This document shows positions 19,446 through 47,831 of a stretch of DNA of 64,000 nt, one piece after another (within the stretch, counting starts at the first letter, position 1; every line of letters starts with the position of its first letter). Under the pieces are notes generated by a model. The model ran no database searches. It was not told the origin of the DNA and saw only the letters and a list, made by a program, of their open reading frames with translations. Origin of the DNA: Candidatus Cloacimonadales bacterium (GTDB lineage: Bacteria; Cloacimonadota; Cloacimonadia; Cloacimonadales; JAIOQZ01); contig OY771587.1 in assembly GCA_963674825.1 (NCBI GenBank), positions 2,080,001 through 2,144,000 on the forward strand, in the 5' to 3' direction. Both the position numbers and the translations under genes were made by a program.

Positions 19446-19462
19446 GGTGTCTCCGGGTCGAT

Positions 19463-25343: not shown

Positions 25344-25386
25344 TACATCGCTCATGGGTATCGTTTTCGCTTCGCGAAAGCCGAAC

Positions 25387-30189: not shown

Positions 30190-31240
30190 AGAAGTGGTCT
30201 CGGAAATTCGGACTTGCGTCTAAGTGGAAATCTTGCTCCGATGGACCATAGAGAAGAGAAAGTATTTAAGGAGTAAGAGCATGAGAAGACCACGACGTAA
30301 TCACTCGGCGACATTCAAGGCAAAGGTGGCGCTGGCCGCGCTCAAAGGTGACCCGACGCTTGCCGAACTTGCAGAATAATTCGACGTTCATCCCAACCAG
30401 ATATCGGACTGGAAACAGCAGATGCTGGACAACGCTTCTCAGGTGTTCGGCGGTCCGCGTAAGGACAAAGACAACGAACCCGACGTGAAGGCGATGCAGG
30501 CCAAGATCGGCGAGCTGACCCTCGAGAATGATTTTTTAGAAAAGGCGCTCATCAAAGCGGGAAAACTGAGCGCAAAGCGATGATCGACCGCGATCACAAG
30601 CTGCTGGTAAGCCAGCAGTGCCGTGTGCTGAAGCTGTTTCGATCCAGCGTTTATTACCAGCCGCGACCGCTCTCAGAGCACATCCTGAGACTCATGCGAC
30701 GCATCGACGAGCTGCATTTGGAATACCCCTTCGCAGGCTCTAGGATGCTTTCTGAGATGTTGTTTAGGGACGGGTGGGAAATCGGGCGCCGCCGCGTCGG
30801 CACGCTGAAGAAGAAAATGGGCATCTCCGCGCTGTTTCGCAAGCCCAGCACCAGCAAATCGCATCCTGGCCACACGATTTGCCCCTATCTGCTGCGCGAT
30901 TTGGAGATCACCCGACCGAATCAGGTCTGGGCTGCCGATATCACGTATATCCCGATGAAGAAAGGATTTGTCTACCTGTTCGCTGTGATGGACTGGTACT
31001 CGCGCCGCGTACTCGCCTGGTAGCTTTCCAACACCCTGAGCGCCGATTTCTGTGTCGAGACGGTTGAGGAAGCGATGCAAATACATGGTTGTCCCGAGGT
31101 GTTCAACACGGATCAGGGAAGCCAATTTACGAGCGCTAAATTTACCGGATTGCTCAAGGAAAATCGCGTTTCGATCAGCATGGACGGCAAGGTTCCACTT
31201 ATACATGACGGATTTAGTCCAAATTTCCGGCGCCACTTCT
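30190..31240 (+). mobile_element. Degenerate IS3-family insertion sequence
   Basis: IRL AGAAGTGGTCTCGGAAATTCGGAC vs IRR (31217-31240), 20/24 match; orfA from 30281 (MRRPRRNHSATFKAKVAL, internal TAA at 30377); orfB from 30580 (NQVWAADITY, FNTDQGSQFTS) with internal TAG at 31021 and a 3' deletion. Confidence 0.9.
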
Positions 31241-31411: not shown

Positions 31412-31487
31412 GGGTGCTTAGCTCAGTTGGGAGAGCACCTGCCTTACAAGCAGGTGGTCGGCGGTTCAAGTCCGTTAGCACCCACCA
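31412..31487 (+). tRNA. tRNA-Val (anticodon TAC)
   Basis: GGGTGCT acceptor stem, CCTGC-CT-TAC-AA-GCAGG anticodon arm, GGTTCAAGTCC, CCA end; TTGACA at 31371. Confidence 0.97.
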
Positions 31488-31865
31488 TTTTTTTGCCCAA
31501 AATCCGACTTCCCACTCTTCCAATCCGATAAAATCCCAACAAAATAGATAGAGCATAATCCATTTATCCAGTAACAAGATACGCATTTCATGGTGTACGC
31601 ACTCTACGGTTATTATAACATCTCCTGTTATGGATACAATCCATAAGAAAATGAATTGCAGCCGCTCCAACGATGCAACAAGAAGATTCTTCAGGATTGT
31701 TGTGAGTGACAAGCCGTAACCTTCTGATAAACATTCAGAAACACAACGCTTCAAGAAAGATCATTGCATGGCGTTCAGATATGATGTCTGCACGCTATAT
31801 TTTAATGCTTGACATAACTCCTTCTAAACATTTATGAAAGGATCACGATACCACTGGAGTTCTGA

Positions 31866-34229
31866 ATGACATTGTTTGAAACTGCAAGAAATGAAGTTGC
31901 TTCGCTGACAGGTCGCAAGCGCATGGTCAGTTTGTATTTACAAATCAATAAACAGCTGGAAGAACATGAAGAAGAGATGTTGAGGCTTGCCGAAACATTT
32001 CGGGATCAGCCTGTCGATGATCTTCAGGAGCAAGCGGACCGGTTATTCCTGCTTACGCTGGTCAGCTTCTACGACGAGGATGAACGCAAGGTTATAGAGT
32101 ATTTCACGCAGGCGAAAGAAATTCTCTTTCGGATGGGTGAGAACGACCAAGCGCACATGATGAATGACATCATGGTGGGAATCCATACAGATGCCCAAGA
32201 GTTTAAGGACTCGATCCCGTACGCTCTTGAAAGTATGCGGAACTACGAAAAGCTCAACGACGAATACCATCTTGCGCACATTTTAAACAACCTCGGGGTT
32301 GCCTATTCGTGTTTGCATCGATTTTCGGAAGCCTTGCCGATTCTGAATCGTGGGCTTGCCCTGAATCTGAAAAACAACGAGCCGGATATCGTCAACTCAT
32401 ACAACAATATTGCGAGTCTCTATCTTCGCATGAGGCTTTATAACAAGGCCCTCGCTACCTACAAGCTTGCCTTGGAAGCCTGCGATACATTTGGGCTTGA
32501 TGGCATGCAGCACATGATATTGAACAACATTGCCAATATCAACACCGACCTGCAAAACTACCCGGAAGCGCTGGATTATTACCGGCAAGCGCTACAGAAT
32601 TGTACCGACAACAGGAATAAGGCGATCACAATCAACAACATCGGGATGGTTTACTATTTCCAGGAGAAATACAGCGAAGCGATCGAGAACTTCGAGAAAT
32701 CGCTCACGGTATGCCTGGACAACCGATTCTCCTATACCGAGGCGAAGAATCTCTATAACCTTGGTCACACGTACACAATGATTAACAGCTTTGATAAGGC
32801 TCAGGCACTATTGCAGGAGGCCCGTCCGAAGATTGAGAAAACGGGCGATCTGCGGCTGCTTACAAATCTCGATGTCAGCCTGGCGGAGCTTTATATTGCA
32901 CTCAAGCGCTATAAAGATGCGCTCGAGCTTCTGGAAGATATCTATCAACGTCCCCATGACGAGTACAAGGACATGGGGAATATCGAAAAAGCCTTTATCA
33001 TGCTTTTTCGCGAGACTGGTGATAGGGAGAAACTGGTTTATCATCAGAGCAAGTTGATCGAAAAGTATGAGCTCAAGCACGAGGTTGAGTTTGTTCAAAT
33101 GGTTGCGGAGATGCAAGTCGCGCTGGATTTGGAGCTGAAGGAGAAAGAAGCTGAGATGCAGCGCCAGAAGGCGTTGGAGCTTCAGCAGAAAAACGAGGAA
33201 ATTCTTGCGCAGAAACAGCAGATCGAGAAGACACTCGAAGAGTTGCGGAAGTCCGAGATCAGCTACGAATTCCTGCAGAAGGAATACCGCGAACAGCTCG
33301 GTTCCATGATCATCGGTGCAAGCGAACCGATGCAAAGGCTACTGTCACTCATCAGCATGGTGGCTGCCGCCAGCGATACTTCGGTTCTCATTACCGGTGA
33401 GACCGGTACGGGCAAGGAACTGGTGGCACGGGCGATTCACGAATTGAGTAACCGTAGCCATCGAACATTTTGTGCAGTCAATGCTTCGAGCATTCCTGAA
33501 ACCCTTTTCGAAAGCGAATTCTTCGGTTACCGAAAGAACGCCTTCACGGGTGCTGATCGGGATAAGGCCGGCTGGTTTGAAATCGCTAACGAAGGAACAC
33601 TGTTCCTGGATGAGGTGGGAACCTGGCGCTACGACATCCAATCCAAGTTTTTACGTGTACTGGAGAGCCGTAAGGTTATCCCCGTAGGTGGCGACCGGGA
33701 AATCCCCGTCGATTTTCGGCTAATCAGCGCAACAAATGATGATCTACAAAGCATGATCAAAGACAATAGCTTCCGGCCCGATCTCTACTACCGGCTGTCG
33801 TCTTTCATCATCCATATCCCACCGCTCCGTGAGCGCATCGAAGACATCCCACCGCTGCTCGAGTATTTTGTGAACTATTTCAACCAGCGTATGAACAAGA
33901 AGATTACTCGAATCGAGAAACAGATCGAAACAGCCCTTTGCCAGTACTCGTTTCCCGGCAATGTTCGCGAGCTGAAGAACATGGTTGAGCACGCAATGAT
34001 TATCTCCAATACCTCGACGCTACGGCTGTCGTCATTCTCAATTCCTCAGCAACAGGTTTTTGACGATATCGTCATTCCTTTGGATGAACACGAAAAGGCG
34101 ATGATTCTGAAGGCTCTGAAGCACACAGGATACCATCAGAGCAATGCCGCGGCGCTTTTGGGCCTGACACCGAAATCGATGGAGCGTCGCATGAAGAAGT
34201 ACAATATCGTCAATCCCAAAAAGCAATAA
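31866..34229 (+). CDS. TPR-repeat sigma54-dependent transcriptional activator (TPR array, coiled coil, AAA+, Fis-type HTH)
   Basis: Repeated 'NNLG/NNIA/NNIG' TPR units; GETGTGKE, ESEFFG..KNAFTGA, GTLFLDEV, FRPDLYYRL, FPGNVREL; HTH 'QSNAAALLGL'. Confidence 0.92.
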   Translation: MTLFETARNEVASLTGRKRMVSLYLQINKQLEEHEEEMLRLAETFRDQPVDDLQEQADRLFLLTLVSFYDEDERKVIEYFTQAKEILFRMGENDQAHMMNDIMVGIHTDAQEFKDSIPYALESMRNYEKLNDEYHLAHILNNLGVAYSCLHRFSEALPILNRGLALNLKNNEPDIVNSYNNIASLYLRMRLYNKALATYKLALEACDTFGLDGMQHMILNNIANINTDLQNYPEALDYYRQALQNCTDNRNKAITINNIGMVYYFQEKYSEAIENFEKSLTVCLDNRFSYTEAKNLYNLGHTYTMINSFDKAQALLQEARPKIEKTGDLRLLTNLDVSLAELYIALKRYKDALELLEDIYQRPHDEYKDMGNIEKAFIMLFRETGDREKLVYHQSKLIEKYELKHEVEFVQMVAEMQVALDLELKEKEAEMQRQKALELQQKNEEILAQKQQIEKTLEELRKSEISYEFLQKEYREQLGSMIIGASEPMQRLLSLISMVAAASDTSVLITGETGTGKELVARAIHELSNRSHRTFCAVNASSIPETLFESEFFGYRKNAFTGADRDKAGWFEIANEGTLFLDEVGTWRYDIQSKFLRVLESRKVIPVGGDREIPVDFRLISATNDDLQSMIKDNSFRPDLYYRLSSFIIHIPPLRERIEDIPPLLEYFVNYFNQRMNKKITRIEKQIETALCQYSFPGNVRELKNMVEHAMIISNTSTLRLSSFSIPQQQVFDDIVIPLDEHEKAMILKALKHTGYHQSNAAALLGLTPKSMERRMKKYNIVNPKKQ

Positions 34230-34231
34230 TT

Positions 34232-34243
34232 GACGAAATCGTC
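34232..34243. promoter_or_regulatory. Putative enhancer (UAS) palindrome GACGAAATCGTC
   Basis: Within TTGACGAAATCGTCAA just after the activator stop; same 12-mer occurs in the mirror module (44655-44666); GACGATATCGTC also at 34062-34073. Confidence 0.6.
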
Positions 34244-34328
34244 AAAAATCGAACGTTTTACCGGCTCTGCTATCTGAAATTTTCTATATACAATCCGTAA
34301 TATGCTGCTATATCATATGATACAATAG

Positions 34329-34344
34329 TGGCATCGAACATGCA
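34329..34344 (+). promoter_or_regulatory. sigma54 (-24/-12) promoter
   Basis: TGGCAT-CGAAC-ATGCA with exact GG-N10-GC spacing, 25 nt upstream of the ATG at 34370. Confidence 0.75.
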
Positions 34345-34369
34345 TATTCCTTCAATAAAGGAGTACTGC

Positions 34370-34708
34370 ATGCAAATATTACTGTTCAACTGCTTAGAAC
34401 GAATCAAGAGAGATCTGACTCGGCTTCTGCAATCACCGGAAGTGAGTGTTTATCTCTCCGTTTCAAAAAGCGATATCATCAGGATATTAAATTCGACGCA
34501 CATCGACATCGCCATGCTGTCCATACCGGATATCGATACAAACTTGCTCAACGTATTGCACGCATATAAGAACACCAAATTCTACTTCTTTGGTACTCCT
34601 TCATCCATGCTGACGCGCTACGATAACCTTCACGCCGTCGGTATGGATTACTCGGAGTCCGTTTTTCAACCTACCGTTATGCCTGAATGCGATAACTTGC
34701 TGCCATGA
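34370..34708 (+). CDS. Small degenerate receiver-like (CheY-fold) protein
   Basis: RBS AAGGAG; 'MQILLFN...IIRILNSTHIDIAMLS' fits REC beta1/alpha2/beta3, but the acidic pocket and phospho-Asp are absent. Confidence 0.55.
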   Translation: MQILLFNCLERIKRDLTRLLQSPEVSVYLSVSKSDIIRILNSTHIDIAMLSIPDIDTNLLNVLHAYKNTKFYFFGTPSSMLTRYDNLHAVGMDYSESVFQPTVMPECDNLLP

Positions 34709-34748
34709 AGATAAATAACACATTAATACCTATACTCGGGAGGAGTAA

Positions 34749-37700
34749 ATGAGATTTCACACAATGATTCTTGTATTGATCATGGTTTCCGTCGCTCAGC
34801 TTTCTGCCTTTGCAGGAGGTGATGGTTCATCCGAATCTCCTTATCAGGTCAGCAACATTGCTGAGCTTCAGGATGTGGAAAACAATCTGGACGCTCACTT
34901 TATTCAGACTGGAAATATTGATGCCAGCGCGACGACTACCTGGAATAACAACCATGGGTTCAATCCCATCGGCAGTAGCACGACACCATTCACCGGTAGC
35001 TACGATGGCCAGGGATACAGTATCAACGAATTGTATATCTATTCCACTGACGGAGATATCGGCCTGTTCGGCTCGTCAAACAGCGCAACGCTGTCGAACA
35101 TCGTTCTCACCGATTGCAGCGTTCGCGGTAACGACGGCACGGGCGGTTTGGTGGGCGACTCCCATAACGACACCATTACCAATTGCTGCGTGTCCGGATC
35201 TGTTGACGGAGATTATGCTAACGGTGGCCTGATTGGAAGGCTAACGGGTGGAGCCATCAGCAGTTGCTATAGTATTGCCAATGTGACCTGCATCAGTACC
35301 GGCGATCGAACAGGTGGCCTGGTGGGCAATGTCACTAGTGGCGCAAGCATCGATAACTGCTACGCTCATGGTACGGTTAGCGGAGATAATAAGGTTGGTG
35401 GCCTGGTGGGGCAAATCGATGCTTCCACAGTTACGAATTGCTACAGCACAGCCGTTGTGACGTGCGTGAACGAATTTGTCGGCGGCCTGATCAGTATATC
35501 CGAAAACGATGCCACAATCACGAATTCATACTGGAATACCGAGACCTCTGGGCAATCGACCAGCGCGGGTGGTGCAGGGAAGACCACTGACGAGATGAAA
35601 AACCTATACATGTACCACGGAGACGGATGGGATTTTGAATCGGAAACCCAGAACGGAACATCCAACACATGGGACATGGACATCAGCGGTTCGTCCAACG
35701 ACGGCTACCCCTGTCTGGCATGGGAAAACGACCAGATTTTCCTTCCGACTGCCTCGGGTACCGGTACCTCAACCGATCCTTATCAGATCGGCACCCTATA
35801 CGAACTTTTCTGGGTATCGGCGAATCAAGGTATCTGGTCCAGTGATTTCATGCAAACTGACGATATCGACGCGAACGACACCCGAAACTGGAATAACGGA
35901 ATGGGTTACAGGCCAATCGGCAAAAACAGTCCCAATCTTAACGGCGATTACGATGGGCAGGGTTTTACGATCGATGGTCTCTATATTAATCGTCCCTCTA
36001 TGGATTATGTAGGACTCTTTGGGAAATCAAGCGCAAATATCTGGATCAAGAATGTTCATATGACCAATATTGATATCACTGGGAACAATTATGTGGGGGG
36101 GATTACAGGCGAGTGCCATAATAACGCACATATCTACGATTGTTCTGTCCAGGGAGTTGTTAATGGCAATCGATATGTTGCTTGTATTGCTGGAAGGATG
36201 GAAGGCAGCAATATTACTCGATGCCGTTGTGAGGGAACCGTGAATGCATCAACCGTGAACAGTGGTGGAATCACAGGTTTCTTCTCAAGTAGTGCATCCG
36301 TTAATTATTGCGTTAGTTCAGCGACTATAAATGGAAGCGAAAATACCGGTGGTCTGGCTGGATTGGCTGCTACTGGCTCACATATCAATTATTCATATTG
36401 TACAGGACAAGTGACTGGCGGCAGTCAAGTCGGTGGATTGGTGGGCTATGCTTTCTCTACGACAATCCAATATTGTTATAGTTGTGGCCCCCTTTCGGGC
36501 GGCAGTCATGTCGGTGGATTGATTGGCGTTACTAGTGGCTCAAGTGTAAGCCATTCATTTTGGGATATGGAAGCATCAGGCAAAGCTACCAGTCCAGCAG
36601 GAACGGGACTCACAACCGCTGAGATGACATCGCTGCAGACTTTTCTCGATGATGGCTGGGATTTTGTTTCCGAAACCGCTAACGGTACGGCTGATCGCTG
36701 GGATATCGACTTGAAGGGAGATGTCAATAATGGATATCCCGTCCTTGCCTGGGAAGATGGGGACGTGTGCCTACTCGAAATCCCCTCTGGAAGCGGAACC
36801 GAAGCAGATCCCTATCAGATCGAAACCCTGATCCAGCTATGCTGGGTTTCATGTACACCTTCGACGTGGAGCAGCCATTTTGTGCAGATTGCCGATATCG
36901 ATGCCGCCGACACCGAAACATGGTTCGGGGGCCTTGGTTTCAAGCCCATCGGTAACGACGATACAGTATTCTCTGGATCATATGATGGACAATTTTATAC
37001 CATCGATGGGCTCTTCATCAATAGACCAGCCAGCGACGAGAATGGCCTGTTTGGCCAGGTCACCGGTGGGCAGATTTCCAATCTTCATGTGCTGAACTGC
37101 GACATCACAGGCAGGTATCGCACAGCCCCGATCGCCGCATCCTGCAACAATGTTACGATAACGAACTGCCATACATCCGGTACGATCAGCTCCTCAAATG
37201 GTGGTGGCGGTATCGCAGGACGAGTTTATACAACCGAAATAACAGGATGTTATTCCTCGGTCGGTGTATCCTCATATAATGAAGGTAGTTACTATGGAGG
37301 CATTACCGGAGGAGCTACGATCAACTCGACAATCGCAAATTGTTATGCAGTAGGCAACATCAGTTCAGGTAGCACGTGTGGCGGCCTGGTTGGATTGTTG
37401 GATAGTTCGACGGTTGAACACTGCTACAGTATCGGCTCCGTAACGGCTGACTCGGATGTCGGTGGACTTATCGGTGTTGCTTCTGGAACCTACTCAGTCG
37501 TTGGAGGTTTCTGGGATGTTACGACCTCAGGCCAGTCTTCCAGCGCAGGTGGTGAAGGTAAGACGACCTCATATATGAGATGCTCTATGACATACATCGA
37601 TGCCGGCTGGGACTTTGTGTCCGAGACAGCAAACGGTACGGACGACGTATGGGACATGGACCTCTTTAACAATTACAACGCTTCTTATCCGTTTCTTTCC

Positions 37701-40700
37701 TGGCAGAATGGCGACACTGAATTGTTATCTTTACCGTTGGGAAGTGGTACTGAAACGGATCCGTACCAGATCATGAACCTGATGCATCTTGTCTGGCTTT
37801 CTGCATCACCATCGGTTTGGGGCCAATACTTTCTGCAAACTGCCGATATCGACGCCAATGATACCCAGAACTGGAACAATGGAGCCGGTTTCTGGCCCAT
37901 CGGAAATAGCACGACGAATTTCACCGGTTACTACGATGGTGGCGAACACGTGATTGATGGACTTTACATTCATCCAGGAATAATGGATGTCGGTTTTTTC
38001 GGTGCAACGAATAACGCCACAATCGAGAACCTGAGCTTGACCAATGCCGATATTGATGCAAACGACGATGGAGGCGTACTTGCCGGTGAACTCAGATACT
38101 CGACCGCTACAAACTGTCACAGCAGCGGAACGGTAAGTGCCAATTACGCTGGGGGATTGATTGGATACCCTTATGACTCAATGATCACGCTCTGCTCCAG
38201 CTCGGCAAGTGCATTCGGTGATAGTGATGCCGGTGGATTGATTGGTTATTGTAGCTCTTCAGCGATCATCCAATCATTCGCAACGGGCAGTGTGGAAAGT
38301 GACGATGAAACTGGAGGCCTGGTTGGTGACTTGCTAACATCATCCATCAGCTTGTCTTTCGCAACGGGCCATGTGGAGGGAGATGACAACGTCGGTGGTC
38401 TGGCTGGTCATGTAGAGAACTCGACAATCAACCAGTCATACGCCACCGGTAACGTTACCGGTGGCCAGGATGCCGGAGGACTGGTTGGTTATCTGGAATC
38501 GGGCAATGCGTACGATTGTTTTAGCACAGGCGATACGGAAGGAGATTGGGCAGGTGGTCTGGTAAGTGATCTTGAAGGTACTGTCAATCGCTGCTATAGC
38601 ACGGGATATGTGTCCGGTAGTAATGATGAAGGAGGCCTGGTCGGGTATTTTCGAATTAGCGGCAACACGATCGCATCGTTTTGGGATGTAGAGACTTCCG
38701 GCCAGAGCACTAGTTACGGAGGTAAAGGGCTGACGTCTACAGAGATGAGGACTTCATTGGTATATATCTTGAGTGGCTGGGATTTTCCGGGTGAAACCGT
38801 AAATGGTTTTGATGATATCTGGGTGCTGGACAGCTCCATGAATGACGGTTACCCGACCTTTGCCTGGCAGGGCGGTACATCGGAATCGTTCGCTGCACCC
38901 GAAGGTGAGGGAACAACGGGTAATCCTTACTTGATCGACAGCTTGGACGATCTCATCTGGTTATCGGTAAACACGAATGCCTGGAACGGAAATATCCTGC
39001 AAATAGCCGACATCGACGCAAGTGAAACTCAGAGCTGGGTTGGAGGCAATGGCTTCATCCCGATCGGAAAAGAGGGGGACGCATTCCTCGGTAGCTATAA
39101 CGGTCAGGGATTTACGATCAGTGGACTCTACATCAATCGGAGCGATACGGAAAACGTAGGGCTTTGGGGCTATACCGACGGTGCCGAAATCACAGATGTC
39201 AACCTGACCAATGTAGTGATACGCGGCTCGGTGCAAGTCGGAGCGCTTGTTGGCACCACGACATATTCCACGGTTGTTTCCGGTTGTTCGAGCAGCGGAA
39301 GTGTGGAAGGCGCTAGTATCATCGGTGGACTCATTGGATCCTCTTACACCACTTCTATCATAGATTGCCATACTGACGGCAGTGTCGAGAGTCGTACAAC
39401 AAATGGCTGGACGGTAGGCGGCTTGGTCGGAGCGCATCGGCTTAATGGTACCATGGTTGGGTGTTATAGCGAGGCGACCGTTTCGGGAGGCTCTCAAGTT
39501 GGAGGATTAATCGGGAAGACCAACAACTCCAGCCTGTCAACGGTCGCGAAGTGCCATTGCACAGGCGACGTTACCGGAACGGGCGAATTTGCTGGTGGTC
39601 TGATCGGATATAGCGAGGACTATACATATCTTACGGATTCGTATTGCACCGGGAGTGTGACAGGCGTGAGCAACGTAGGTGGTTTGGCGGGTTCTGCTGC
39701 TTCCAGCGATACGATTACAAATTGCTACAGCAATGGTTATGTTACCGGTACTTCTTCTGTCGGTGGATTCCTGAGCGTTAACCATGGGGCGAGTATCAAT
39801 GCGTCATTCTGGGACACCGAGACTTCCGGTCAAAGCATCAGCGCTGGCGGAACTGGCAAGACAACTGCCGAAATGAAGACAATATATCCTTACATGAATG
39901 CTGGCTGGGATTTTGTTGGTGAGGTGCAAAACGGAACAGAAGATATCTGGGTCATCTTTGCTAACGAGTATCCGAGCTTCGCGATTGAATCCTCATCACC
40001 TGTCATCACGGGTGTAAACGACGTCCCGGGTGACCAGGGGCATCAGGTCGATATCGTATGGAACAAGGCATCTCATGATTGGATCTATAGCCCGAACAAC
40101 TTCTACACCGTGTGGCGTCTGGTGGTAAATACACGCTCCATTGGTTCGGAGGCAGTTATTATCGAAAATCCCGAGCAATTCGTTGAACCGAATCATGACC
40201 AAACACTGATTCTGCATCAACGGGATAACTACTGGACATGGCTGGCAACAATCCCGGCCATGATGCACAATCAATACTCCTTCATCTCGCCGACTCTGAT
40301 CGATTCCTGCGCTTCGCTTTCACCGGAGGAGTACCTGTCTACTTACATGGTTAACTACCATTTCGTAAGTGGTTACTTTGCCTCAACCGAAGCCTCTGGC
40401 TACTCGGTAGACAACATTGCGCCGTACGCTACGTCCGGAGTAACGCTTTCTTTCAATAACACGCGCACAGGGTCTGCAACGAGGTTGCCCAGTAGCACCC
40501 GAACAAATACAGCGACTCTCAGCTGGAACGAAGTCACCGAAGGCGGCCTCAACGGCAATAGCTACCCTGAAGAAAATGGTGTCTGGTACCGTGTCTATGC
40601 AGGTGAATCTCCTGATTTCTATTGTGATGACACATCTCTGCTCCAGACGACGCAGGCTACCAGTATCAATCTCAATCCCGCAGACGCGGAGAGAAGATTC

Positions 40701-40730
40701 TTCAAGATTGTGGTAAGCGATCAGCCGTAA
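34749..40730 (+). CDS. Giant secreted GLUG-motif repeat protein (five ~330-390 aa modules)
   Basis: RBS GGAGGAG; signal peptide; five 'GxG(S/T)xx(S/D/N)PY' module starts, many VGGLVG motifs, 'FWDxETSGQ...GWDF' module ends. Confidence 0.88.
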   Translation: MRFHTMILVLIMVSVAQLSAFAGGDGSSESPYQVSNIAELQDVENNLDAHFIQTGNIDASATTTWNNNHGFNPIGSSTTPFTGSYDGQGYSINELYIYSTDGDIGLFGSSNSATLSNIVLTDCSVRGNDGTGGLVGDSHNDTITNCCVSGSVDGDYANGGLIGRLTGGAISSCYSIANVTCISTGDRTGGLVGNVTSGASIDNCYAHGTVSGDNKVGGLVGQIDASTVTNCYSTAVVTCVNEFVGGLISISENDATITNSYWNTETSGQSTSAGGAGKTTDEMKNLYMYHGDGWDFESETQNGTSNTWDMDISGSSNDGYPCLAWENDQIFLPTASGTGTSTDPYQIGTLYELFWVSANQGIWSSDFMQTDDIDANDTRNWNNGMGYRPIGKNSPNLNGDYDGQGFTIDGLYINRPSMDYVGLFGKSSANIWIKNVHMTNIDITGNNYVGGITGECHNNAHIYDCSVQGVVNGNRYVACIAGRMEGSNITRCRCEGTVNASTVNSGGITGFFSSSASVNYCVSSATINGSENTGGLAGLAATGSHINYSYCTGQVTGGSQVGGLVGYAFSTTIQYCYSCGPLSGGSHVGGLIGVTSGSSVSHSFWDMEASGKATSPAGTGLTTAEMTSLQTFLDDGWDFVSETANGTADRWDIDLKGDVNNGYPVLAWEDGDVCLLEIPSGSGTEADPYQIETLIQLCWVSCTPSTWSSHFVQIADIDAADTETWFGGLGFKPIGNDDTVFSGSYDGQFYTIDGLFINRPASDENGLFGQVTGGQISNLHVLNCDITGRYRTAPIAASCNNVTITNCHTSGTISSSNGGGGIAGRVYTTEITGCYSSVGVSSYNEGSYYGGITGGATINSTIANCYAVGNISSGSTCGGLVGLLDSSTVEHCYSIGSVTADSDVGGLIGVASGTYSVVGGFWDVTTSGQSSSAGGEGKTTSYMRCSMTYIDAGWDFVSETANGTDDVWDMDLFNNYNASYPFLSWQNGDTELLSLPLGSGTETDPYQIMNLMHLVWLSASPSVWGQYFLQTADIDANDTQNWNNGAGFWPIGNSTTNFTGYYDGGEHVIDGLYIHPGIMDVGFFGATNNATIENLSLTNADIDANDDGGVLAGELRYSTATNCHSSGTVSANYAGGLIGYPYDSMITLCSSSASAFGDSDAGGLIGYCSSSAIIQSFATGSVESDDETGGLVGDLLTSSISLSFATGHVEGDDNVGGLAGHVENSTINQSYATGNVTGGQDAGGLVGYLESGNAYDCFSTGDTEGDWAGGLVSDLEGTVNRCYSTGYVSGSNDEGGLVGYFRISGNTIASFWDVETSGQSTSYGGKGLTSTEMRTSLVYILSGWDFPGETVNGFDDIWVLDSSMNDGYPTFAWQGGTSESFAAPEGEGTTGNPYLIDSLDDLIWLSVNTNAWNGNILQIADIDASETQSWVGGNGFIPIGKEGDAFLGSYNGQGFTISGLYINRSDTENVGLWGYTDGAEITDVNLTNVVIRGSVQVGALVGTTTYSTVVSGCSSSGSVEGASIIGGLIGSSYTTSIIDCHTDGSVESRTTNGWTVGGLVGAHRLNGTMVGCYSEATVSGGSQVGGLIGKTNNSSLSTVAKCHCTGDVTGTGEFAGGLIGYSEDYTYLTDSYCTGSVTGVSNVGGLAGSAASSDTITNCYSNGYVTGTSSVGGFLSVNHGASINASFWDTETSGQSISAGGTGKTTAEMKTIYPYMNAGWDFVGEVQNGTEDIWVIFANEYPSFAIESSSPVITGVNDVPGDQGHQVDIVWNKASHDWIYSPNNFYTVWRLVVNTRSIGSEAVIIENPEQFVEPNHDQTLILHQRDNYWTWLATIPAMMHNQYSFISPTLIDSCASLSPEEYLSTYMVNYHFVSGYFASTEASGYSVDNIAPYATSGVTLSFNNTRTGSATRLPSSTRTNTATLSWNEVTEGGLNGNSYPEENGVWYRVYAGESPDFYCDDTSLLQTTQATSINLNPADAERRFFKIVVSDQP

Positions 40731-40754
40731 AACAGGGACTCCTTACGTAAAGGA

Positions 40755-40781
40755 AAAGGGCAGCCGATCTGGCTGCCCTTT
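40755..40781. terminator. Bidirectional terminator between the two mirror modules
   Basis: AAAGGGCAGCC-gatct-GGCTGCCCTTT. Confidence 0.8.
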
Positions 40782-40800
40782 GTCGCATCGGAAGGTTGCG

Positions 40801-43800
40801 TTATTTGAGCAACAGTGATTTCCCTGTGCATGTTCTGGTCTGTGTTTTCAACCGATAGAAGAAGATACCGCTGGAAACCGGTTTCTCATTCTCGTCGGTA
40901 CCATTCCACATGACTTTGTGGTTCTTTCCTGCAGGATAAAGACCATTGACGAGTGTCTTTACCTTCTGGCCGCGAACGTTGAATATCTCGAGTGTAACGG
41001 GAACCATTTCCCCAGCTTCTCCTGCAAGGTCGAAGCAAATATTGGTCTCGGGATTGAACGGGTTGGGGAAATTGCCATTGAGCTGTGTCACGACAATAAC
41101 TTCCGGGGCTTCCGGTTCGTCGCCACCGTCCTCGAGAACGACCGATACCGGCCCGTACATCTGAGACGCTCCACTCAGCTCCAGGCTGACGACCCAGTAG
41201 AAGAGTTCCGATTCATCGGAGATGTCTTCGTCCTGATAATAGTAGCGATTCTCGGTTGTCTGGTTCTGGCCGGGAATGATACTCGATGTAAGGTAGATGG
41301 CATCTGATTCGCTATTGGTTGTACCGCGAAGCAGCTGATAGCCGAGTATCCCGCTTTCGGAAGCCGTTACCCAAGAAATCATGACCTGCGAATCATCAAC
41401 CACGGATGCGCAGAAAGATGTGAGTTCGACGGGCAATGTCTGTTCGTTACCGAGTTCGCCAGGTGTCGCGTTAGCAGGTGTGGATGCCGTCCAAATATTG
41501 GATGTTTCCTGTACCATGTCATCGCCAGCGTAAACGACCGGTGATGCGTCGATCTCTCCTGCTCGTGCATTTGGATCGTAGATTTCATATGCACAGTCGT
41601 TTGTGATCGGCATGGCAGATGTTCCGGGCAGATAATTCAAATCACCGCTAATGCCCCATGCATTGCGAAAATCAATATCTGAAGCGCCACATCCAATTAC
41701 CAGGATACCTCCTGATTTTTGGATAAATGTTCCATCGGGTATGTCGTAGGAAACCTCGGGTGAATCGGCGACAAAGTTACCGCCGAAAGCGTCAGCCGTA
41801 CCGGTATGGATTCTATAGCCACTCAAATCAAGACTATAGCTTGTATTGTTCACCAGTTCGATGAAGCCTGTATTGTCAGCTTGTCCTGTAAGATTATCGC
41901 ATACTTCGGAAATGTAGAGACCACCTGCTGTAGGTGTGGATGCGACAATCTGGAAGGCATCGACCAGAATGGCATATCCGCTGAACATGGAGGTAGAAAG
42001 CATACCGATATACATGCTTGGCGAATCGGCCAGATCTGTAAGATCGATCACATGCTTTTTCCAGTAGGGCGCTGGTGCAGACGCATCAGCGCGGGGAATG
42101 AACGCGCCGATATCATACCAGTTGTTTTCATCTGTCGAGTATTGGATTTGAATACCTTCCTGATCGTAAGGAGATCCGCTCATGTCCGCGCTGTGCATGA
42201 CCCACAGTTCGAGCCGCAGGGCAGCGTATGTACTAAGGTCCAGGCTTGGTGTGTAATATCTACCCTGACCACCGGCCCGGCTTAATCCATTGACAATACC
42301 CATCGAGTCACCTTCATAGGGTTCGCAATTCGGATATGTGTTCTGTATAACAGCAGACCACTCAGGATCGTAACCAGGACCGCTTCCATAATTGACGATT
42401 TCCTCACTCCAGCCTGTAGCCGGGAATCCACAAGAGTCGAACATTTCCTCACAGGGCAGGTCGTCTTGCGGTTCGGCAACTGCATCCGTGATTTCGATGT
42501 TGTCGATGAGGATACTCTGGTATTGTTCAGTTGGGCACATCTTGAATGCTATATATGAAGCTCCTCGGAGAACATTTAAGAGATTGACTTCGTAGTTCAT
42601 GTATCCAGATGTGAGTTGAAAAGTGTCCAGTGTTATGAACATGTCCGGATCAGATGGATCTGTCATATAGCCAACCTTAAGAGAGGGAAAAGACTCGGAA
42701 TACTCGGAAGAGTATGACTCGAAATAAAGGCTATTGGTACCATTGAAATCTTCGTCGGAAATAGCCGGTCCAACCGCGATCAGAAGTAATTCCTCCGAGG
42801 TGTCGTTGCTGTTGTACATATACATGCAGGGCGAATTATCAACACCATACGATTCGTCGATATTGACCTCGGTATACTCAGAACTCGAACTGACAAGCGC
42901 TTCCCACGGAGATGGCAGATGATTGTACCACGCTTCGTTGAAATTCTCTGCGTATGGTAGTGTGACCGTCTGGATGTCGCCTCCGGGTTCGCCAATGTAA
43001 ACGTCATCCAGTGCCATACCCTGCTCCGCGTCCGTAGAATTAAACCGGAACGCAAGCTGGAATATAGATCGTACGGGATAGAATTCGATTTCAAACTTCT
43101 GCATGTCTTCGGTCAGTTCAAATGAATCGATTTCGTAGTAGCTCTCGGGATCTTCCAGACTATCGAAATAGCCAACGCCGATCGATGGGTAGGTTGAGTT
43201 CGTGTAGCACGATGCCCAGAATGTGAGAACTTGCCCCTCAAGCTGCTCATTATCTAAAAATGGACCGCCGACGAACATATAATCACCAGCCTGCGGTTCG
43301 TCACTTTTCCAGTAATAAATGCAGTTTGGATCAGAGTGAGAATAGTAGCTATAAACATAGATATATTCGTTTGATTCATCGGAGACATACGATTGCCAGT
43401 CATCCGGCATATATTCCGAGTCGTCGAAATCCTGGAAGTAAGGCAGTTCCGCTCCGACGACACCACCAGATTCGCCGATATAGATATCATCCAGCGCCAT
43501 GCCTTGAGTTCCATCATTCGGTACAAACTCGTAGGCAATCTGGTAATCGGTCCGAACCCAGTTGAGATCATACGAGTAATATGACATGTTTCCAGACAAT
43601 GTATAAGAATCGAACTCGGTGAACGATGTTGGGTCATCGGCTGTGGACAGGAAACCGAGTCGCACGCTGGGCATATCGTATTCCGAATACCCCAGTGCCC
43701 AGAACGAAAGGGTGAGATTGCTGAAATCAGACGAATTGATATAGGGTCCCGCTGCGATGATATGGCTGTTCTCTAATGGAGCATTACTGTTCCAGAAATA

Positions 43801-43995
43801 AAGACAGTACGGTTCGGAATGATAATATGCTGGATAGGGTGCGGCATAAGCGCTTGTCCCATCGCTGATATAGATCGTCCAACCTTCTGGAAGACTGGAT
43901 GACGCATCGAAATTTTGAGTGTAGGGCAGTGTCGCTGCTTGTGCCAGTAATACTGCGGAAATGCATAACATAAGGAAAGTGATGATGTTTTTCAT
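40801..43995 (-). CDS. Secreted protein with 3-4 cleaved-adhesin/MAM-like repeats, lamin-tail-like domain and FlgD-Ig/T9SS-like C-terminal domain
   Basis: RBS AAGGAG; repeats 'LPYxQxFD...P..W...MALDDxYIGE'; 'LYISEVCD...FIELVN'; TLPVELTSF; NFPNPFNPET. Confidence 0.85.
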   Translation of the reverse strand: MKNIITFLMLCISAVLLAQAATLPYTQNFDASSSLPEGWTIYISDGTSAYAAPYPAYYHSEPYCLYFWNSNAPLENSHIIAAGPYINSSDFSNLTLSFWALGYSEYDMPSVRLGFLSTADDPTSFTEFDSYTLSGNMSYYSYDLNWVRTDYQIAYEFVPNDGTQGMALDDIYIGESGGVVGAELPYFQDFDDSEYMPDDWQSYVSDESNEYIYVYSYYSHSDPNCIYYWKSDEPQAGDYMFVGGPFLDNEQLEGQVLTFWASCYTNSTYPSIGVGYFDSLEDPESYYEIDSFELTEDMQKFEIEFYPVRSIFQLAFRFNSTDAEQGMALDDVYIGEPGGDIQTVTLPYAENFNEAWYNHLPSPWEALVSSSSEYTEVNIDESYGVDNSPCMYMYNSNDTSEELLLIAVGPAISDEDFNGTNSLYFESYSSEYSESFPSLKVGYMTDPSDPDMFITLDTFQLTSGYMNYEVNLLNVLRGASYIAFKMCPTEQYQSILIDNIEITDAVAEPQDDLPCEEMFDSCGFPATGWSEEIVNYGSGPGYDPEWSAVIQNTYPNCEPYEGDSMGIVNGLSRAGGQGRYYTPSLDLSTYAALRLELWVMHSADMSGSPYDQEGIQIQYSTDENNWYDIGAFIPRADASAPAPYWKKHVIDLTDLADSPSMYIGMLSTSMFSGYAILVDAFQIVASTPTAGGLYISEVCDNLTGQADNTGFIELVNNTSYSLDLSGYRIHTGTADAFGGNFVADSPEVSYDIPDGTFIQKSGGILVIGCGASDIDFRNAWGISGDLNYLPGTSAMPITNDCAYEIYDPNARAGEIDASPVVYAGDDMVQETSNIWTASTPANATPGELGNEQTLPVELTSFCASVVDDSQVMISWVTASESGILGYQLLRGTTNSESDAIYLTSSIIPGQNQTTENRYYYQDEDISDESELFYWVVSLELSGASQMYGPVSVVLEDGGDEPEAPEVIVVTQLNGNFPNPFNPETNICFDLAGEAGEMVPVTLEIFNVRGQKVKTLVNGLYPAGKNHKVMWNGTDENEKPVSSGIFFYRLKTQTRTCTGKSLLLK

Positions 43996-44008
43996 GGTAC
44001 ATACTCCT

Positions 44009-44422
44009 TTATGTGGTTATTACTTGGATGACATTGTAATTATCGGGTTGTTGTTTCCCTGAGATCCCCCGCAAGGTGCTCATGGCTCTATTCTCGGAGA
44101 TACACTTCAGAACGCGAATCAGGTCATCGACAGTTGGGAATCCTTTAAACCTGTAGATTAGGTTTGATGTGTCAGATATTTTGTCTCCGCTGTTTGTAAG
44201 GATGATACGGGTCTTGACCGGATTGGTGTGAATATGATGGATAAGCGAATCATTCTCTTCATGCCTGTCGTCCAATACCACGAAATCCATGCGATTCCTT
44301 TGGATCAGCCGAAGAGCATCCTGCCCTGTAACGGCGAAAAACAGGCTTGTATCGAGACTTTGCTGGATTTTCTGCAAGTCTTCGGATTGCAGATATTCCT
44401 GATTAACCAGTAAAATATTCAT
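44009..44422 (-). CDS. Small stand-alone receiver-like protein (atypical)
   Basis: 'MNILLVNQE...AVTGQDALRLIQRNRMDFVVLDD...TRIILT' REC pattern; beta1 acidic pair degenerate. Confidence 0.65.
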   Translation of the reverse strand: MNILLVNQEYLQSEDLQKIQQSLDTSLFFAVTGQDALRLIQRNRMDFVVLDDRHEENDSLIHHIHTNPVKTRIILTNSGDKISDTSNLIYRFKGFPTVDDLIRVLKCISENRAMSTLRGISGKQQPDNYNVIQVITT

Positions 44423-44450
44423 CCATACTCCATTGTTTTCACATTACTAA

Positions 44451-44466
44451 TGCATAATGAATGCCA
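44451..44466 (-). promoter_or_regulatory. sigma54 (-24/-12) promoter
   Basis: Minus strand TGGCAT-TCATT-ATGCA, GG-N10-GC, 28 nt upstream of the ATG at 44422. Confidence 0.75.
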
Positions 44467-44544
44467 ATTGATATAATACATTGCAGGATGGTCAATTACG
44501 GCAATACATGGATGGGGTGAAATCATTTACATACGATGCAATAA

Positions 44545-44666
44545 GACGATATCGTCTGGCTATCATGGGGTGAGAAAGAAAAGATTATTGTAACTGCATG
44601 ATAAGTAATTGGTTGTGATCGATCGGGAGCGCCATAGACGTTTTCGTCTATATAGACGATTTCGTC
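44545..44666. promoter_or_regulatory. Three putative enhancer palindromes GACG(A/T)WWTCGTC
   Basis: GACGATATCGTC 44545-44556, GACGTTTTCGTC 44637-44648, GACGATTTCGTC 44655-44666. Confidence 0.65.
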
Positions 44667-44676
44667 CTGTGATGAA

Positions 44677-46935
44677 TTAAAACTCTTCTCGCAGGTTGAA
44701 TTTATTGATGCGGCGTTCCACAGCTTTTTGCGATACACCCAGCAGTTTGGCTGCCTTGGTCTGGTTTCCGCTTGTTCTTTTCAACGCTCGCAGGAGCATG
44801 GTTTTCTCTATTGTTTCCAGCGGGATGATATTCTCGTCATCAGTACAGGGAAGCTCCATGTTATTGATGGGGATGGAAAAATGCTGCAATTGCAGAGTAG
44901 GACTGTCACAGATGATGAGAGCTCGTTCTACCATATTACGTAGTTCCCGAATATTTCCCGGGAAATCATAGGATTCAATCGTGGTGAAGATCTGCGGATC
45001 GATGCGGCGTACGGATTTATTCAGTCTTGGGGCATAGGTATTTACAAAATGCTCGATTAATGGCTGGATATCCTCTTTACGTTCGCGAAGCGGTGGTATC
45101 TGGATCACAAACGCTGCCAGGCGATGGTAGAGGTCTTCCCGAAACTGTTTCTGTGAGACAAGTTCGAGCAGATCCATGTTGGTGGCGGAAATTACTCGCA
45201 CATTGACAGGTATTTCGTGCCGAGCTCCAACCCTGACAATGTTCCGTTCTTCCAGCACCCGCAACAGCTTGATCTGATGATCCAGCGGCATGTTACCGAT
45301 CTCGTCCAGGAAAAGGGTTCCTCCGTTTGCCACTTCGAACCATCCGGCTTTCTGGGAAAGGGCCCCAGTGAATGCCCCCTTCTCATAGCCAAAAAACTCG
45401 CTTTCGAATAGCGTCGATGAGATGGCGGAGGAATTGATGGCGTGGAAATATTTCTGTTTGCGCTGACTCATCTCATGAATTCCGCGCGCGACAAGCTCCT
45501 TGCCGGTACCGCTTTCGCCCATGATCAGTACAGAAGTCGCGTCTGCACGGGCAACTTTTGACATAAGCTGGATGATATTGCGTACGGTTGTGCTGTTGCC
45601 AACGATACGGGTCTGGAAGCTGCTTTTGATCTCATCGGCGAGGAAATCGAGGTTTCGCTCGCTACGACGAAGCTCCTTCAGCGTTTTATCGAGATCTTCT
45701 TTCTGTTGTAGGATAAGCCGGTTCTTCTCTTCGAGTTCATGGTTTTTTTCTTTGAAAAGCTCCGCTTCGCGTTCTCGCTGTTCCAGCTCAAATTTTGTTC
45801 GCATTTCGGCCAACATCTGCTGATTGTCTTCTTTGGCGATCTCGATGTATTTCTTGAGATGCTTCTCCTTGTATGCGAATGCTTTTTCAAAATCCTTCTT
45901 TACATTGTATATTTTTGCGAAAAGGTCGTAAAGCTCCACCCGTATCTGGTTGTCGTCATCAAGATGCTTGCATGCTTCCAGACAAAGCGCTTCCGCTTCA
46001 TCGTATTGCTCTGTCATGAATGCTACATATGCCAGGCGAATCTGTGAACGACTCATCAAAACATCAGCGCCACGATCTTTTCGCAGTTGGAGGGCTTGGG
46101 TGTGGTATTTACGTGCGTTTGGGTAGTCAGCAAGCTGATAATAGACATTTCCAATGCCGTTAAGAGTGTTTGAAATGCGGATCGAGTCTTTCTGATCGCG
46201 TTTGATCTCCAGCGACTGGTGTAAGTATTCAAGTGCTTGTTCATATTGCTTCATGCAATGACAGGTGATACCGACGATATTCAGTGCATTCGCATAATAG
46301 GTAATTTGTCCGGAAGCCTTGAAGATTTCCAGTGCTTGCAAGCCATATTCAAGACCTCGTTCGTATTCGCCGAGATTGTTATATATGCGTGTGATATTAG
46401 TCAGCGATAATCCAACTTTCTCCGTCTGGTTGAGCTTTCTGCGTATTTCAAGAGATTTTTGTGTATAATCAAGCGCAAGGGAATTGCGATTCATGAAGAG
46501 GTAACACTCTCCCATATTGTTCATGATGCTTGCCTGATTATCGATGTCATTCATTTGCACTGCGCAATCGAGCGCTCTATTGAAGCAGATGAGAGCCTGG
46601 TCGTACAAATTTCTGGCAAAGTAGTTACCTGCCTTCTCAAAGTGAACCAGCATCAAGCGGCGAGGATTACCGGTCTGATCAAAATACTCTTTTGCCTTAT
46701 CGAGCCACTGGAGTGCTTCTTCGCCTTTCTCAAGCGCTGATTCCAGTTTGTACTTAACGATGTATAGCAGTCCGTGATCTTCAGGAAATTCCGATCGTTC
46801 AACAATCTCGCGCATTTTTTCGTATTCATGTCTTCCCGTTTCAAGATCGCATCTATGAATTGCATTAAACGATTGATTCATGTGAAGTTTATATTCGTCG
46901 AAAAGTGTTCTGGTTTGCGAATTTTCTGCTTTCAT
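44677..46935 (-). CDS. TPR-repeat sigma54-dependent transcriptional activator (paralog of 31866-34229)
   Basis: TPR array; GESGTGKE, ESEFFGYEKGAFTGA, GTLFLDEIG, FREDLYHRL, FPGNIREL; HTH 'QTKAAKLLGV'. Confidence 0.93.
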   Translation of the reverse strand: MKAENSQTRTLFDEYKLHMNQSFNAIHRCDLETGRHEYEKMREIVERSEFPEDHGLLYIVKYKLESALEKGEEALQWLDKAKEYFDQTGNPRRLMLVHFEKAGNYFARNLYDQALICFNRALDCAVQMNDIDNQASIMNNMGECYLFMNRNSLALDYTQKSLEIRRKLNQTEKVGLSLTNITRIYNNLGEYERGLEYGLQALEIFKASGQITYYANALNIVGITCHCMKQYEQALEYLHQSLEIKRDQKDSIRISNTLNGIGNVYYQLADYPNARKYHTQALQLRKDRGADVLMSRSQIRLAYVAFMTEQYDEAEALCLEACKHLDDDNQIRVELYDLFAKIYNVKKDFEKAFAYKEKHLKKYIEIAKEDNQQMLAEMRTKFELEQREREAELFKEKNHELEEKNRLILQQKEDLDKTLKELRRSERNLDFLADEIKSSFQTRIVGNSTTVRNIIQLMSKVARADATSVLIMGESGTGKELVARGIHEMSQRKQKYFHAINSSAISSTLFESEFFGYEKGAFTGALSQKAGWFEVANGGTLFLDEIGNMPLDHQIKLLRVLEERNIVRVGARHEIPVNVRVISATNMDLLELVSQKQFREDLYHRLAAFVIQIPPLRERKEDIQPLIEHFVNTYAPRLNKSVRRIDPQIFTTIESYDFPGNIRELRNMVERALIICDSPTLQLQHFSIPINNMELPCTDDENIIPLETIEKTMLLRALKRTSGNQTKAAKLLGVSQKAVERRINKFNLREEF

Positions 46936-47081: not shown

Positions 47082-47714
47082 CTATTTATTTGTGCGATAC
47101 TGATCGGCTTCATCTCTTGTAACAATTTTATCGCCATCCTGGTCTTTTTCCAGATGTGATTTCATCATATGCTCGGTCAGTTCTTTTTCGTCCACGTTAC
47201 CGTCTTTGTTTGTGTCGAGTGCTGCGTGGCGTTTCTGGGTAAATGTAAGATACTCTGCCTTATCGATAAATCCATCTTTGTTCAGATCGAGTACCATGAA
47301 TTGGTAGGATGGGTTGTCCGGACATTCGAGCCCTGTAGTATCAATTTCTTCCCAGCCGGGACCTACGAGTGCGGTTTTCATTTCTTCCAGGGTAATGAGT
47401 TTGTCGTTATCGGCATCCCAGTGTTTAAACATGTACGCGATTCTCGCGAGAACTTCGGATTCGTCCTGGACACCGTCGCCGTTAATGTCACGATGATCGT
47501 AAAGACGCATCATGTTGGCTTTGTGTTCTTCGCGTGAGATCAGGCCATCATTGTCGGTATCCTGAAAATCCTGCATCGAAGTGGTAACGAGTTCTTTTTG
47601 TGCTGTCTCAGCTTCTTGTTGGGCAGCTTCCTGCTTGGGCGCTTCCTGCTTTGGTGCACATGCTGCAAAGATTAGTAATGATAGTAAAACAAACGCAGTT
47701 ATTAAACGATTCAT
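47082..47714 (-). CDS. EF-hand calcium-binding lipoprotein
   Basis: GGAGG RBS; lipobox FAAC; six EF loops (DTDNDGLISREE, DINGDGVQDESE, DADNDKLITLEE, DLNKDGFIDKAE, DTNKDGNVDEKE, DQDGDKIVTRDE). Confidence 0.85.
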   Translation of the reverse strand: MNRLITAFVLLSLLIFAACAPKQEAPKQEAAQQEAETAQKELVTTSMQDFQDTDNDGLISREEHKANMMRLYDHRDINGDGVQDESEVLARIAYMFKHWDADNDKLITLEEMKTALVGPGWEEIDTTGLECPDNPSYQFMVLDLNKDGFIDKAEYLTFTQKRHAALDTNKDGNVDEKELTEHMMKSHLEKDQDGDKIVTRDEADQYRTNK

Positions 47715-47831
47715 TTGATCCTCCATAGTTCGTTTCCCATATAATGAAAAAGAACTGGAGCTTGTCAAGTTCGCCATGTTGCGTTGATGAATTTCGTTCA
47801 TTTGGTACTGCGGTTTGTTCTCAATTGACAC

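Follow-up and report, generated by a model that had tools for sequence, protein, structure and literature searches.

A phylum-typical and apparently undescribed sigma-54 cassette of Cloacimonadota combining a TPR-bearing activator, a putative pseudo-receiver and exchangeable large secreted proteins

Activators of the NtrC/NtrC1/AtoC class combine an AAA+ domain carrying a GAFTGA-type loop with a Fis-type helix-turn-helix (HTH) domain, and their genes stand beside a target with a palindromic enhancer and a -24/-12 promoter. Some sigma-54 activators are controlled in trans by a co-regulated protein, as known for PspF/PspA, HrpRS/HrpV, NifA/NifL and FleQ/FleN. Furthermore, the lone receiver VemR binds FleQ and represses flagellar genes (PMC9923393, available sections). 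The RRNPP receptors (Rap, NprR, PlcR, PrgX and AimR) contain a cytoplasmic tetratricopeptide repeat (TPR) superhelix, and here the Rap proteins bind the single-domain receiver Spo0F (PMC3601957, available sections). In a 64-kb window of contig OY771587.1 of a Candidatus Cloacimonadales bacterium (the whole stretch analysed, 64,000 nucleotides), features of these systems come together in two convergent modules, A and B, which share one gene order: a TPR-bearing activator, a small receiver-like open reading frame (ORF) and a very large secreted protein, called cargo in the following (Table 1). The modules meet at a hairpin, and all ORFs were found as an earlier note on this DNA had described them. 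They are members of a phylum-typical sigma-54 cassette, which is apparently undescribed: no description was found in the literature covered, which takes in only a minority of the subscription journals, and in a paper on Cloacimonadota (PMC8542988) the term "sigma" does not occur.

Both activators contain TPR, Sigma54_activat, AAA_lid and HTH_8 domains (Pfam; Sigma54_activat with E-values of 5e-62 for A and 1e-65 for B), and no NCBIfam family scored above its cut-off. The closest named homologues are labelled Candidatus Cloacimonetes. Between activators A and B, 665 residues align with 41% identity; in the family alignment the identity is 36%. Among 27 activators compared, 26 match the Walker A motif, 25 Walker B and 24 the R-finger, and the L1 motif GAFTGA or a near variant is present in 26, the last row being misread by the pattern. 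The G-to-N substitution at the first position of L1, as present in activator A, is listed as a functional variant in the available part of PMC3162934. The genome of the window (G000, 99.57% complete) encodes RpoN as well as two proteins of the HU/IHF family. By their AAA+ motifs and L1 loop, together with RpoN, a promoter and an enhancer, both activators are sigma-54 enhancer-binding proteins as far as sequence can tell, and it is very likely that each switches on the -24/-12 promoter of its module.

The exact promoter pattern TGGCAY-N6-TGC occurs twice in the window, starting 41 and 44 nt before the two pseudo-receiver ORFs; the count is at chance level (mean 1.24 for the window) and only the position is informative. 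All four exact GACGA-N2-TCGTC palindromes of the window fall in the two modules, and with up to one mismatch 13 sites are present, compared to 2.79 expected. Comparison with the orthologous spacers of two other genomes (G001 and G002), which have otherwise diverged, shows conserved islands at the palindromes, at the -24/-12 element and at the ribosome binding site. The earlier note mentions none of these cis elements. The additional palindrome inside the gene of activator A is retained in the G001 orthologue as well, a retention for which coding constraint could account.

On the level of the family, the enhancer covaries with the recognition helix of the activator. A GACGA-N2-TCGTC site (up to one mismatch) lies behind 19 of 22 activators with a K-x-x-E-R-R helix and behind none of 21 with other helices, as counted by a script whose pattern missed one locus (L032). 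The flanks of the palindrome vary with the helix, T-x-K going with T...A, S-Q-K with A...T and N-R-K with G...C (the latter in two of three cases). Helices of the form [DE]-R-[KR]-V-[VI]-E-R-K are paired with GGTCA-N4-TGACC in five of six cases, and the helix E-R-R-A-L-S-R-R with GTCC-N6-GGAC in a single row. This covariation suggests that the HTH domain recognises the palindromic enhancers behind its own gene. Since the enhancers of modules A and B have the same core and a different flank, cross-talk between them is possible, not certain.

The small ORFs had been described as degenerate receivers, which is borne out. The family was assembled from fetched loci (45 distinct small ORFs, 29 genomes, nine families), and its profile has the receiver of NtrC1 as best solved match (E 5.7e-9), followed by the receiver of an HD-domain protein and Spo0F. 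For pseudo-receiver B, the predicted model (predicted local distance difference test, pLDDT, 83.5) displays a (beta/alpha)5 arrangement and its top Foldseek matches are receivers. The family is thus predicted to adopt the CheY-like (beta/alpha)5 receiver fold. Homology within it rests on the family profile: the direct comparison of pseudo-receivers A and B is marginal (E 4e-4), and Pfam labels one of nine small ORFs of the genome as a receiver, and this weakly (E 0.006). The family comprises 131 clusters at 50% identity (E up to 1e-10). An Asp is present at the phosphorylation position in 11 of 45 members, the acidic pair and the Lys are not conserved, and none of 143 short database relatives contains the acidic pair together with the phospho-Asp; therefore, these proteins are named pseudo-receivers. 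For pseudo-receiver A, the most likely start codon is the ATG at 34370, which is preceded by GGAG, and not the GTG at 34328, because the latter overlaps the promoter.

The ratio of nonsynonymous to synonymous rates (dN/dS) of the pseudo-receivers is 0.08-0.23 in the five of nine pairs with measurable dS; for the two ORFs of the window dS is saturated, and the proportions of nonsynonymous and synonymous differences are 0.23-0.30 and 0.80-0.85. This points to purifying selection, which argues for real proteins. Across 21 cassettes (187 distant pairs), similarity of the small ORF correlates with that of the activator HTH (rho 0.48), AAA (0.40) and TPR (0.29) domains and ignores that of the cargo (0.02). 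Nevertheless, the pseudo-receiver might serve the cargo as a chaperone, in translational coupling or as an export helper, or be a near-neutral relic, in both cases having no regulatory role. Its position fits this, since the small ORF usually ends 0-60 nt before the cargo and often overlaps the cargo start, and so does its divergence, which is faster than that of the activator, together with its absence from several cassettes. On the contrary, the cassette cargos are mutually unrelated, the pseudo-receiver is under purifying selection, 4 of the 45 small ORFs precede regulators, and a survey of 48 large secreted proteins of the genome found neither such an ORF nor the promoter for most of them. 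We consider a cargo-bound or relic role very unlikely.

In the genome, 23 sigma-54 activator-like ORFs were found (one weak match excluded), of which ten are TPR-AAA-HTH proteins of 710-831 aa. Behind six of these lie a promoter, a small ORF and a gene for a 1,064-3,160-aa cargo. All ten lone pseudo-receiver ORFs have a -24/-12 site, compared to none of three canonical single-domain receivers. The earlier note had proposed a one-component switch. This applies to the TPR-AAA form, not strictly to the system, since the genome also encodes three pairs of a TPR histidine kinase and a receiver-bearing activator, two of which have the same unit of promoter, pseudo-receiver and cargo downstream. The further proposal of one switch for one surface protein does not hold: two loci (L004 and L149) have promoter, small ORF and cargo without an adjoining activator, L004 with the enhancer T-GACGA-N2-TCGTC-A, and at L021 a second GLUG gene stands in tandem. 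Together with a target (L150) to which we return below, these orphan units argue for a small network with targets in trans rather than solely self-contained units. At L149 (G000:C1:1837300-1842300), a putative serine recombinase gene, recognised by a sequence motif, and a tRNA-like piece lie between the cargo of one cassette and the orphan unit, which comprises a promoter, a pseudo-receiver and a 2,929-aa gene and has a different palindrome as candidate enhancer. Two other TPR activators, L009 (G000:C1:2493599) and L010 (2953415), precede small ORFs of about 95 and 67 aa, neither of which is matched by the pseudo-receiver profile; the promoter-like site of L010 is one base short of the consensus spacing.

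The same arrangement recurs across the phylum. A profile of nine small ORFs gave matches in 51 of 201 genomes, the weaker ones including ordinary receivers. Within the 45-member family, 43 small ORFs have a -24/-12-type site within 120 nt upstream, mostly at 37-52 nt (relaxed pattern; about 4% expected by chance). Judged by eye, the gene behind has a signal-peptide-like start in 35 cases, encodes a regulator in four and another protein in one, and none was found in five. At L047, L056 and L061 (family f15) and at L048, promoter and pseudo-receiver stand before a receiver-bearing activator or a hybrid kinase, which suggests autoregulatory loops or cascades. A conserved control unit with an exchangeable secreted cargo, as the unrelated outputs of A and B had led the earlier note to propose, is hence seen phylum-wide. 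As a control, 75 activators of other phyla were inspected, none of which has such a small ORF or an exact GACGA site, and seven have a strict promoter within 700 nt; these are generic activators from a search with the activator alignment and are uninformative on the range of the cassette. In five genomes of other phyla, a search with the small-ORF profile gave no strongly scoring lone pseudo-receiver, the best matches lying in long frames and one 119-aa frame (E 1e-4) being left uninspected. TPR-bearing activators as such are also found in other phyla, with similar ones in Zixibacteria, Krumholzibacteriota and Myxococcota; the assignment to these taxa rests on few records.

Taking these parts together, it is rather probable that the two halves of the locus are independent copies of a mobile sigma-54 cassette with a TPR-gated activator and pseudo-receiver feedback. 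In such a cassette, the cytoplasmic activator would bind via its HTH domain to the palindromic enhancers that directly follow its own gene. The TPR superhelix would hold an intracellular ligand, most likely a peptide or protein segment in extended form, and the signal would pass through the coiled coil and release the AAA+ domain, which would open the -24/-12 promoter 100-230 bp downstream. On the transcript, the phosphorylation-dead receiver would come first, followed by a large adhesin-like protein for secretion, and the former would act as a detached receiver domain with feedback on the regulator of its own cassette. This feedback, which we favour slightly, is deduced from the anatomy and from analogy with VemR/FleQ, PspA/PspF and HrpV/HrpS. 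A negative sign is conceivable and a positive one doubtful, so that damping would be likelier than boosting. A complex prediction for activator B with pseudo-receiver B scored 0.16, where 0.32 is the mark, and counts neither way. That a split-off, site-stripped receiver, placed behind the activator's own promoter, acts in feedback by binding to the TPR sensor or the AAA+ domain, and thereby constitutes a new class of sigma-54 circuit, is rather unlikely. If true and combined with positive feedback, each cell would choose in a bistable manner among about ten large surface proteins. In an almost uncultured phylum, it would also represent surface variation without DNA inversion, addressed by helix and enhancer and reshuffled by horizontal transfer and cargo swapping.

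Several observations weigh against this reading. Four of the ten TPR-AAA-HTH activators of the genome lack such a cassette, and the target L150 has two T-GACGA-N2-TCGTC-A enhancers and a promoter straight before a secreted gene, with no small ORF in between. The conservation of the three-gene order is likewise partial. Starting from the activator, a small ORF follows in 18 of 20 close homologues with downstream room (one more ran off its contig), compared to only four of nine in a more distant set, from which two loci with insufficient downstream room had been dropped; four of the five without it run straight into a secreted gene. The fixed core therefore consists of activator, enhancer, promoter and secreted protein, to which the pseudo-receiver is a common but optional addition. 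The covariation of small ORF and activator is equally explained by linkage with recombination between small ORF and cargo, the pairs being non-independent. For the recognition helix, three of the 22 K-x-x-E-R-R activators have no GACGA site, and the rule was framed post hoc, follows phylogeny and includes non-independent kin rows. Finally, the tree of the AAA domain discussed below was calculated by a quick method without bootstrap, and the TPR fold also matches MalT (Z 23.5), which is a sugar-binding protein.

The sensor itself appears to be shared more widely. The TPR/coiled-coil module of the activators also heads histidine kinases and 15 DHp-only proteins of the genome, which marks it as a general sensor of the lineage. 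These 15 TPR/coiled-coil proteins (L151-L161, L163 and L164) have about 400-630 aa. Their C-terminal part is a HisKA (DHp) domain in which the His is retained, with no HATPase in the 15 of 16 C-termini scanned, followed by a short, strongly conserved tail; three of them stand in tandem (L161). They might form a family of phosphotransfer or phosphatase proteins that are gated by a sensor. Since DHp domains are the normal docking partner of receivers, the pseudo-receiver of the very same cassette may instead dock on the DHp domain of TPR kinases or of these TPR-DHp proteins and thereby act as a decoy or adaptor to a wider phosphorelay. Pseudo-receivers next to two-component cassettes would be in line with this, as they retain more of the alpha4-beta5-alpha5 face (judged by eye). 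However, no TPR-DHp gene adjoins a cassette, six cassettes of the genome are without any kinase, and the divergence of the pseudo-receiver best tracks the AAA and HTH domains of the activator. Such docking is thus unlikely, and feedback on the cassette's own regulator is preferred.

The N-terminal 440 residues of activator B were modelled (pLDDT 91.1) as about nine helical hairpins followed by a 90-residue helix reaching the AAA+ domain. Ranked by Z score, the fold matches LGN (31.0), Pins (29.5), APPBP2 (28.2), RapI (27.0), phage Rap (26.3) and NprR (25.9), and the order of classes was repeated in further comparisons. The activators have conserved Asn residues every 40 residues of the TPR (positions 139/140, 180 and 219/220). 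Such a ladder occurs in TPR grooves that hold peptide backbones and, as a further point against a specific assignment, is general to TPR proteins (PMC3601957, available sections). A transmembrane-like segment is present in none of 27 activators. Fold, Asn ladder and missing membrane segment make an intracellular ligand plausible, and the chances that its class is an extended peptide or protein segment appear about even.

Given the note's suggestion of RRNPP-type peptide sensing, a secreted and re-imported peptide might sit in the TPR groove and turn on the surface protein at high cell density. The alignments with RapI (352 residues) and NprR (341 residues) cover about the full TPR length, and the conserved Asn residues would fit as well. 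Even the signal peptide of the cargo could serve as pheromone source, as enterococcal pheromones derive from lipoprotein signal peptides. Yet 19 of 21 activators have no short ORF with signal peptide in the 500 nt to either side, and the matches to pro-peptides at the other two are weak, have no ATG and are not conserved, which leaves a distant gene possible. No SBP_bac_5 (PF00496, Opp-type) protein was found in the genome, compared to 11 of 14 controls, other peptide transporters being outside this search. The effector is C-terminal here and N-terminal in PlcR and RapF (PMC5007282 and PMC3601957, available sections), and the eukaryotic LGN and Pins match better than every RRNPP protein. Quorum sensing of this type is thus very unlikely; neither a peptide gene nearby nor an Opp-type binding protein supports the suggestion, the domain order is reversed, and an intracellular ligand within the cassette model is preferred.

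The earlier note regarded the locus as a duplicated, mirror-image system. The layout stands; that it is a single system does not. In the AAA tree, a single clade (support 98, 20 rows) holds the TPR activators of the cassettes, with A and B in separate subclades, and the orthologues of both halves are about 690 kb apart in G001. In G002 the orthologue of B has no partner within the 19.5 kb fetched, and G003 contains a different convergent pair. The mirror layout is a chance juxtaposition of independent cassettes. A local duplication of A into B is ruled out by the low identity of the activators in the family alignment and by their separate subclades.

Portability, in contrast, gained support. 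One cassette of the genome (L003) is 95% identical over 7.1 kb to a cassette of G001 with the match ending at the cassette ends, while long ordinary matches between these genomes reach 67-81%, and G002 and G003 match only the AAA part of it. The dS is 0.06 for the L003 activator versus 1.77 for activator A, and a recent transfer is the best reading; the RpoN DNA-binding domain (98-99%) is too conserved as a baseline of divergence. Cargos are swapped as well: the L002 activator is closest to that of L026 (64%), the L026 cargo matches the cargo of the orphan unit L004 (56%), and the L002 cargo matches that of L027 (51%). The TPR-AAA fusion itself would most likely derive from a TPR histidine kinase and a receiver-bearing activator that lost their phosphotransfer parts. 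In the quick tree, the TPR-AAA fusion L033 clusters with two-component activators (support 96), and loss of kinase and receiver parts thus seems to have produced such fusions repeatedly.

Cassette A lies 379 nt behind tRNA-Val and beside an IS3 remnant. The latter (30200-31200 and 31412-31487, upstream of activator A) is a stop-broken IS3-family transposase (rve, HTH_21). At 31684-31720 (+), just upstream of activator A, the sequence resembles by eye the 3' end of the cargo A gene and is probably a relic of a deleted cargo gene. An IS3-like repeat at 15814-16071 is located by tRNA-Pro and has 92-93% identical copies in G001-G003, one of which lies in G001, 265 nt beyond the recently transferred cassette. 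A general rule of tRNA-linked insertion was rejected, since only cassette A and L007 (3.7 kb) of nine cassettes are near a tRNA gene.

The cargos of the two modules have no significant similarity (best E 3.2). GLUG motifs occur in 13 stretches within the five modules of cargo A. In cargo B, the matches to FlgD_ig and Por_Secre_tail are weak and below cut-off, and the tail of cargo A is of a different type. A type IX secretion system (T9SS) may occur in Cloacimonadota (PMC11285876, available sections). About 109 ORFs of the genome contain the FlgD-Ig/T9SS-like tail motif. Many cargos (e.g., window 40500-40730) end in a second short motif, F-[FY]-[RK]-[VI]-x-[AS], which is found in about 22 ORFs and possibly represents a second sorting signal. 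The hairpin between the cargos has an 11-bp stem (70-nt region: z -3.5 on one strand and -4.3 on the other), and a terminator common to both cargos is probable.

Table 1. Features of the two convergent modules (window coordinates).
Feature	Position	Strand	Description
Activator A	31866..34229	+	787 aa; TPR array, coiled coil, sigma-54 AAA+ (L1 NAFTGA), Fis-type HTH (TPKSMERR)
Candidate enhancer palindrome T-GACGA-TA-TCGTC-A	34061..34074		within 3' part of activator A
Enhancer (upstream activating sequence) palindrome T-GACGA-AA-TCGTC-A	34231..34244		directly behind stop codon of activator A
Sigma-54 -24/-12 promoter element (GG-N10-GC), module A	34329..34343	+	
Pseudo-receiver A	34370..34708	+	112 aa; Ser at phospho-Asp position, without acidic pocket and conserved Lys
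Cargo A	34749..40730	+	1993 aa; N-terminus resembling a signal peptide, five modules of GLUG repeats, short C-terminal domain common to many cassette cargos
Hairpin between convergent cargos	40755..40781		probably bidirectional intrinsic terminator
Cargo B	40801..43995	-	1064 aa; signal-peptide-like N-terminus, four choice-of-anchor-J-like repeats, lamin-tail, FlgD-Ig/T9SS-like C-terminal domain
Pseudo-receiver B	44009..44422	-	137 aa; (beta/alpha)5 fold (predicted), Asp at phospho position retained, without acidic pair
Sigma-54 -24/-12 promoter element, module B	44452..44466	-	
Promoter-proximal enhancer palindrome	44545..44556		A-GACGA-N2-TCGTC-T class
Enhancer palindrome pair	44637..44648 and 44655..44666		behind stop codon of activator B; first with one mismatch, second exact
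Activator B	44677..46935	-	752 aa; about nine TPR-like helical hairpins, 90-residue helix, AAA+ (GAFTGA), HTH (SQKAVERR)

Two further parts of the window surround the modules. Directly upstream of activator B, a lipoprotein-like protein with several EF-hand motifs is encoded at 47082-47831 (-) and has its own closing hairpin. At 16851-29871 (-), four large secreted proteins of 864-1494 aa with FlgD-Ig/T9SS-like tails follow each other.

With this cassette, a phylum-wide regulatory unit with predicted promoters and binding sites becomes available in a lineage whose regulatory biology is hardly known. It would add a TPR-sensing class and a pseudo-receiver family to sigma-54 regulation, and suggests a way in which such cells ration surface proteins of 1,000-3,000 residues. 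The activators with differing recognition helices and matching enhancers represent a natural library of near-orthogonal sigma-54 switches, and all parts of the cassette are testable in E. coli.

Compared to the known systems, the AAA+ domain, the HTH domain, the enhancer, the promoter and the position of the activator gene beside its target are shared with the NtrC class. In contrast to it, the N-terminus is here a TPR superhelix of about 350 aa with a coiled coil, and the phosphorylation-dead receiver is encoded by a gene of its own within the target operon. TPR is absent from the R domains listed in the available parts of PMC7175178 and PMC12316311 and is not mentioned in the main text of PMC3162934. 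As in PspF/PspA, HrpRS/HrpV, NifA/NifL, FleQ/FleN and FleQ/VemR, a separate small protein is positioned to tune the activator; unlike the activators described here, PspF, HrpRS, NifA and FleQ have no TPR domain. VemR needs its phospho-Asp, whereas the pseudo-receiver family has lost this site. With the RRNPP receptors, the activators have in common a cytoplasmic TPR superhelix of similar size and the conserved Asn residues, which are not RRNPP-specific. They differ in the C-terminal effector, an AAA+ ATPase, in the diderm host, and in that no peptide gene or Opp-type binding protein was found in the searches described above. The pairs of TPR histidine kinase and receiver-bearing activator from the same genome and phylum have the same TPR/coiled-coil module, promoter, pseudo-receiver and cargo. 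These pairs signal by phosphotransfer, whereas the activators of the window fuse the TPR sensor directly to the AAA+ domain.

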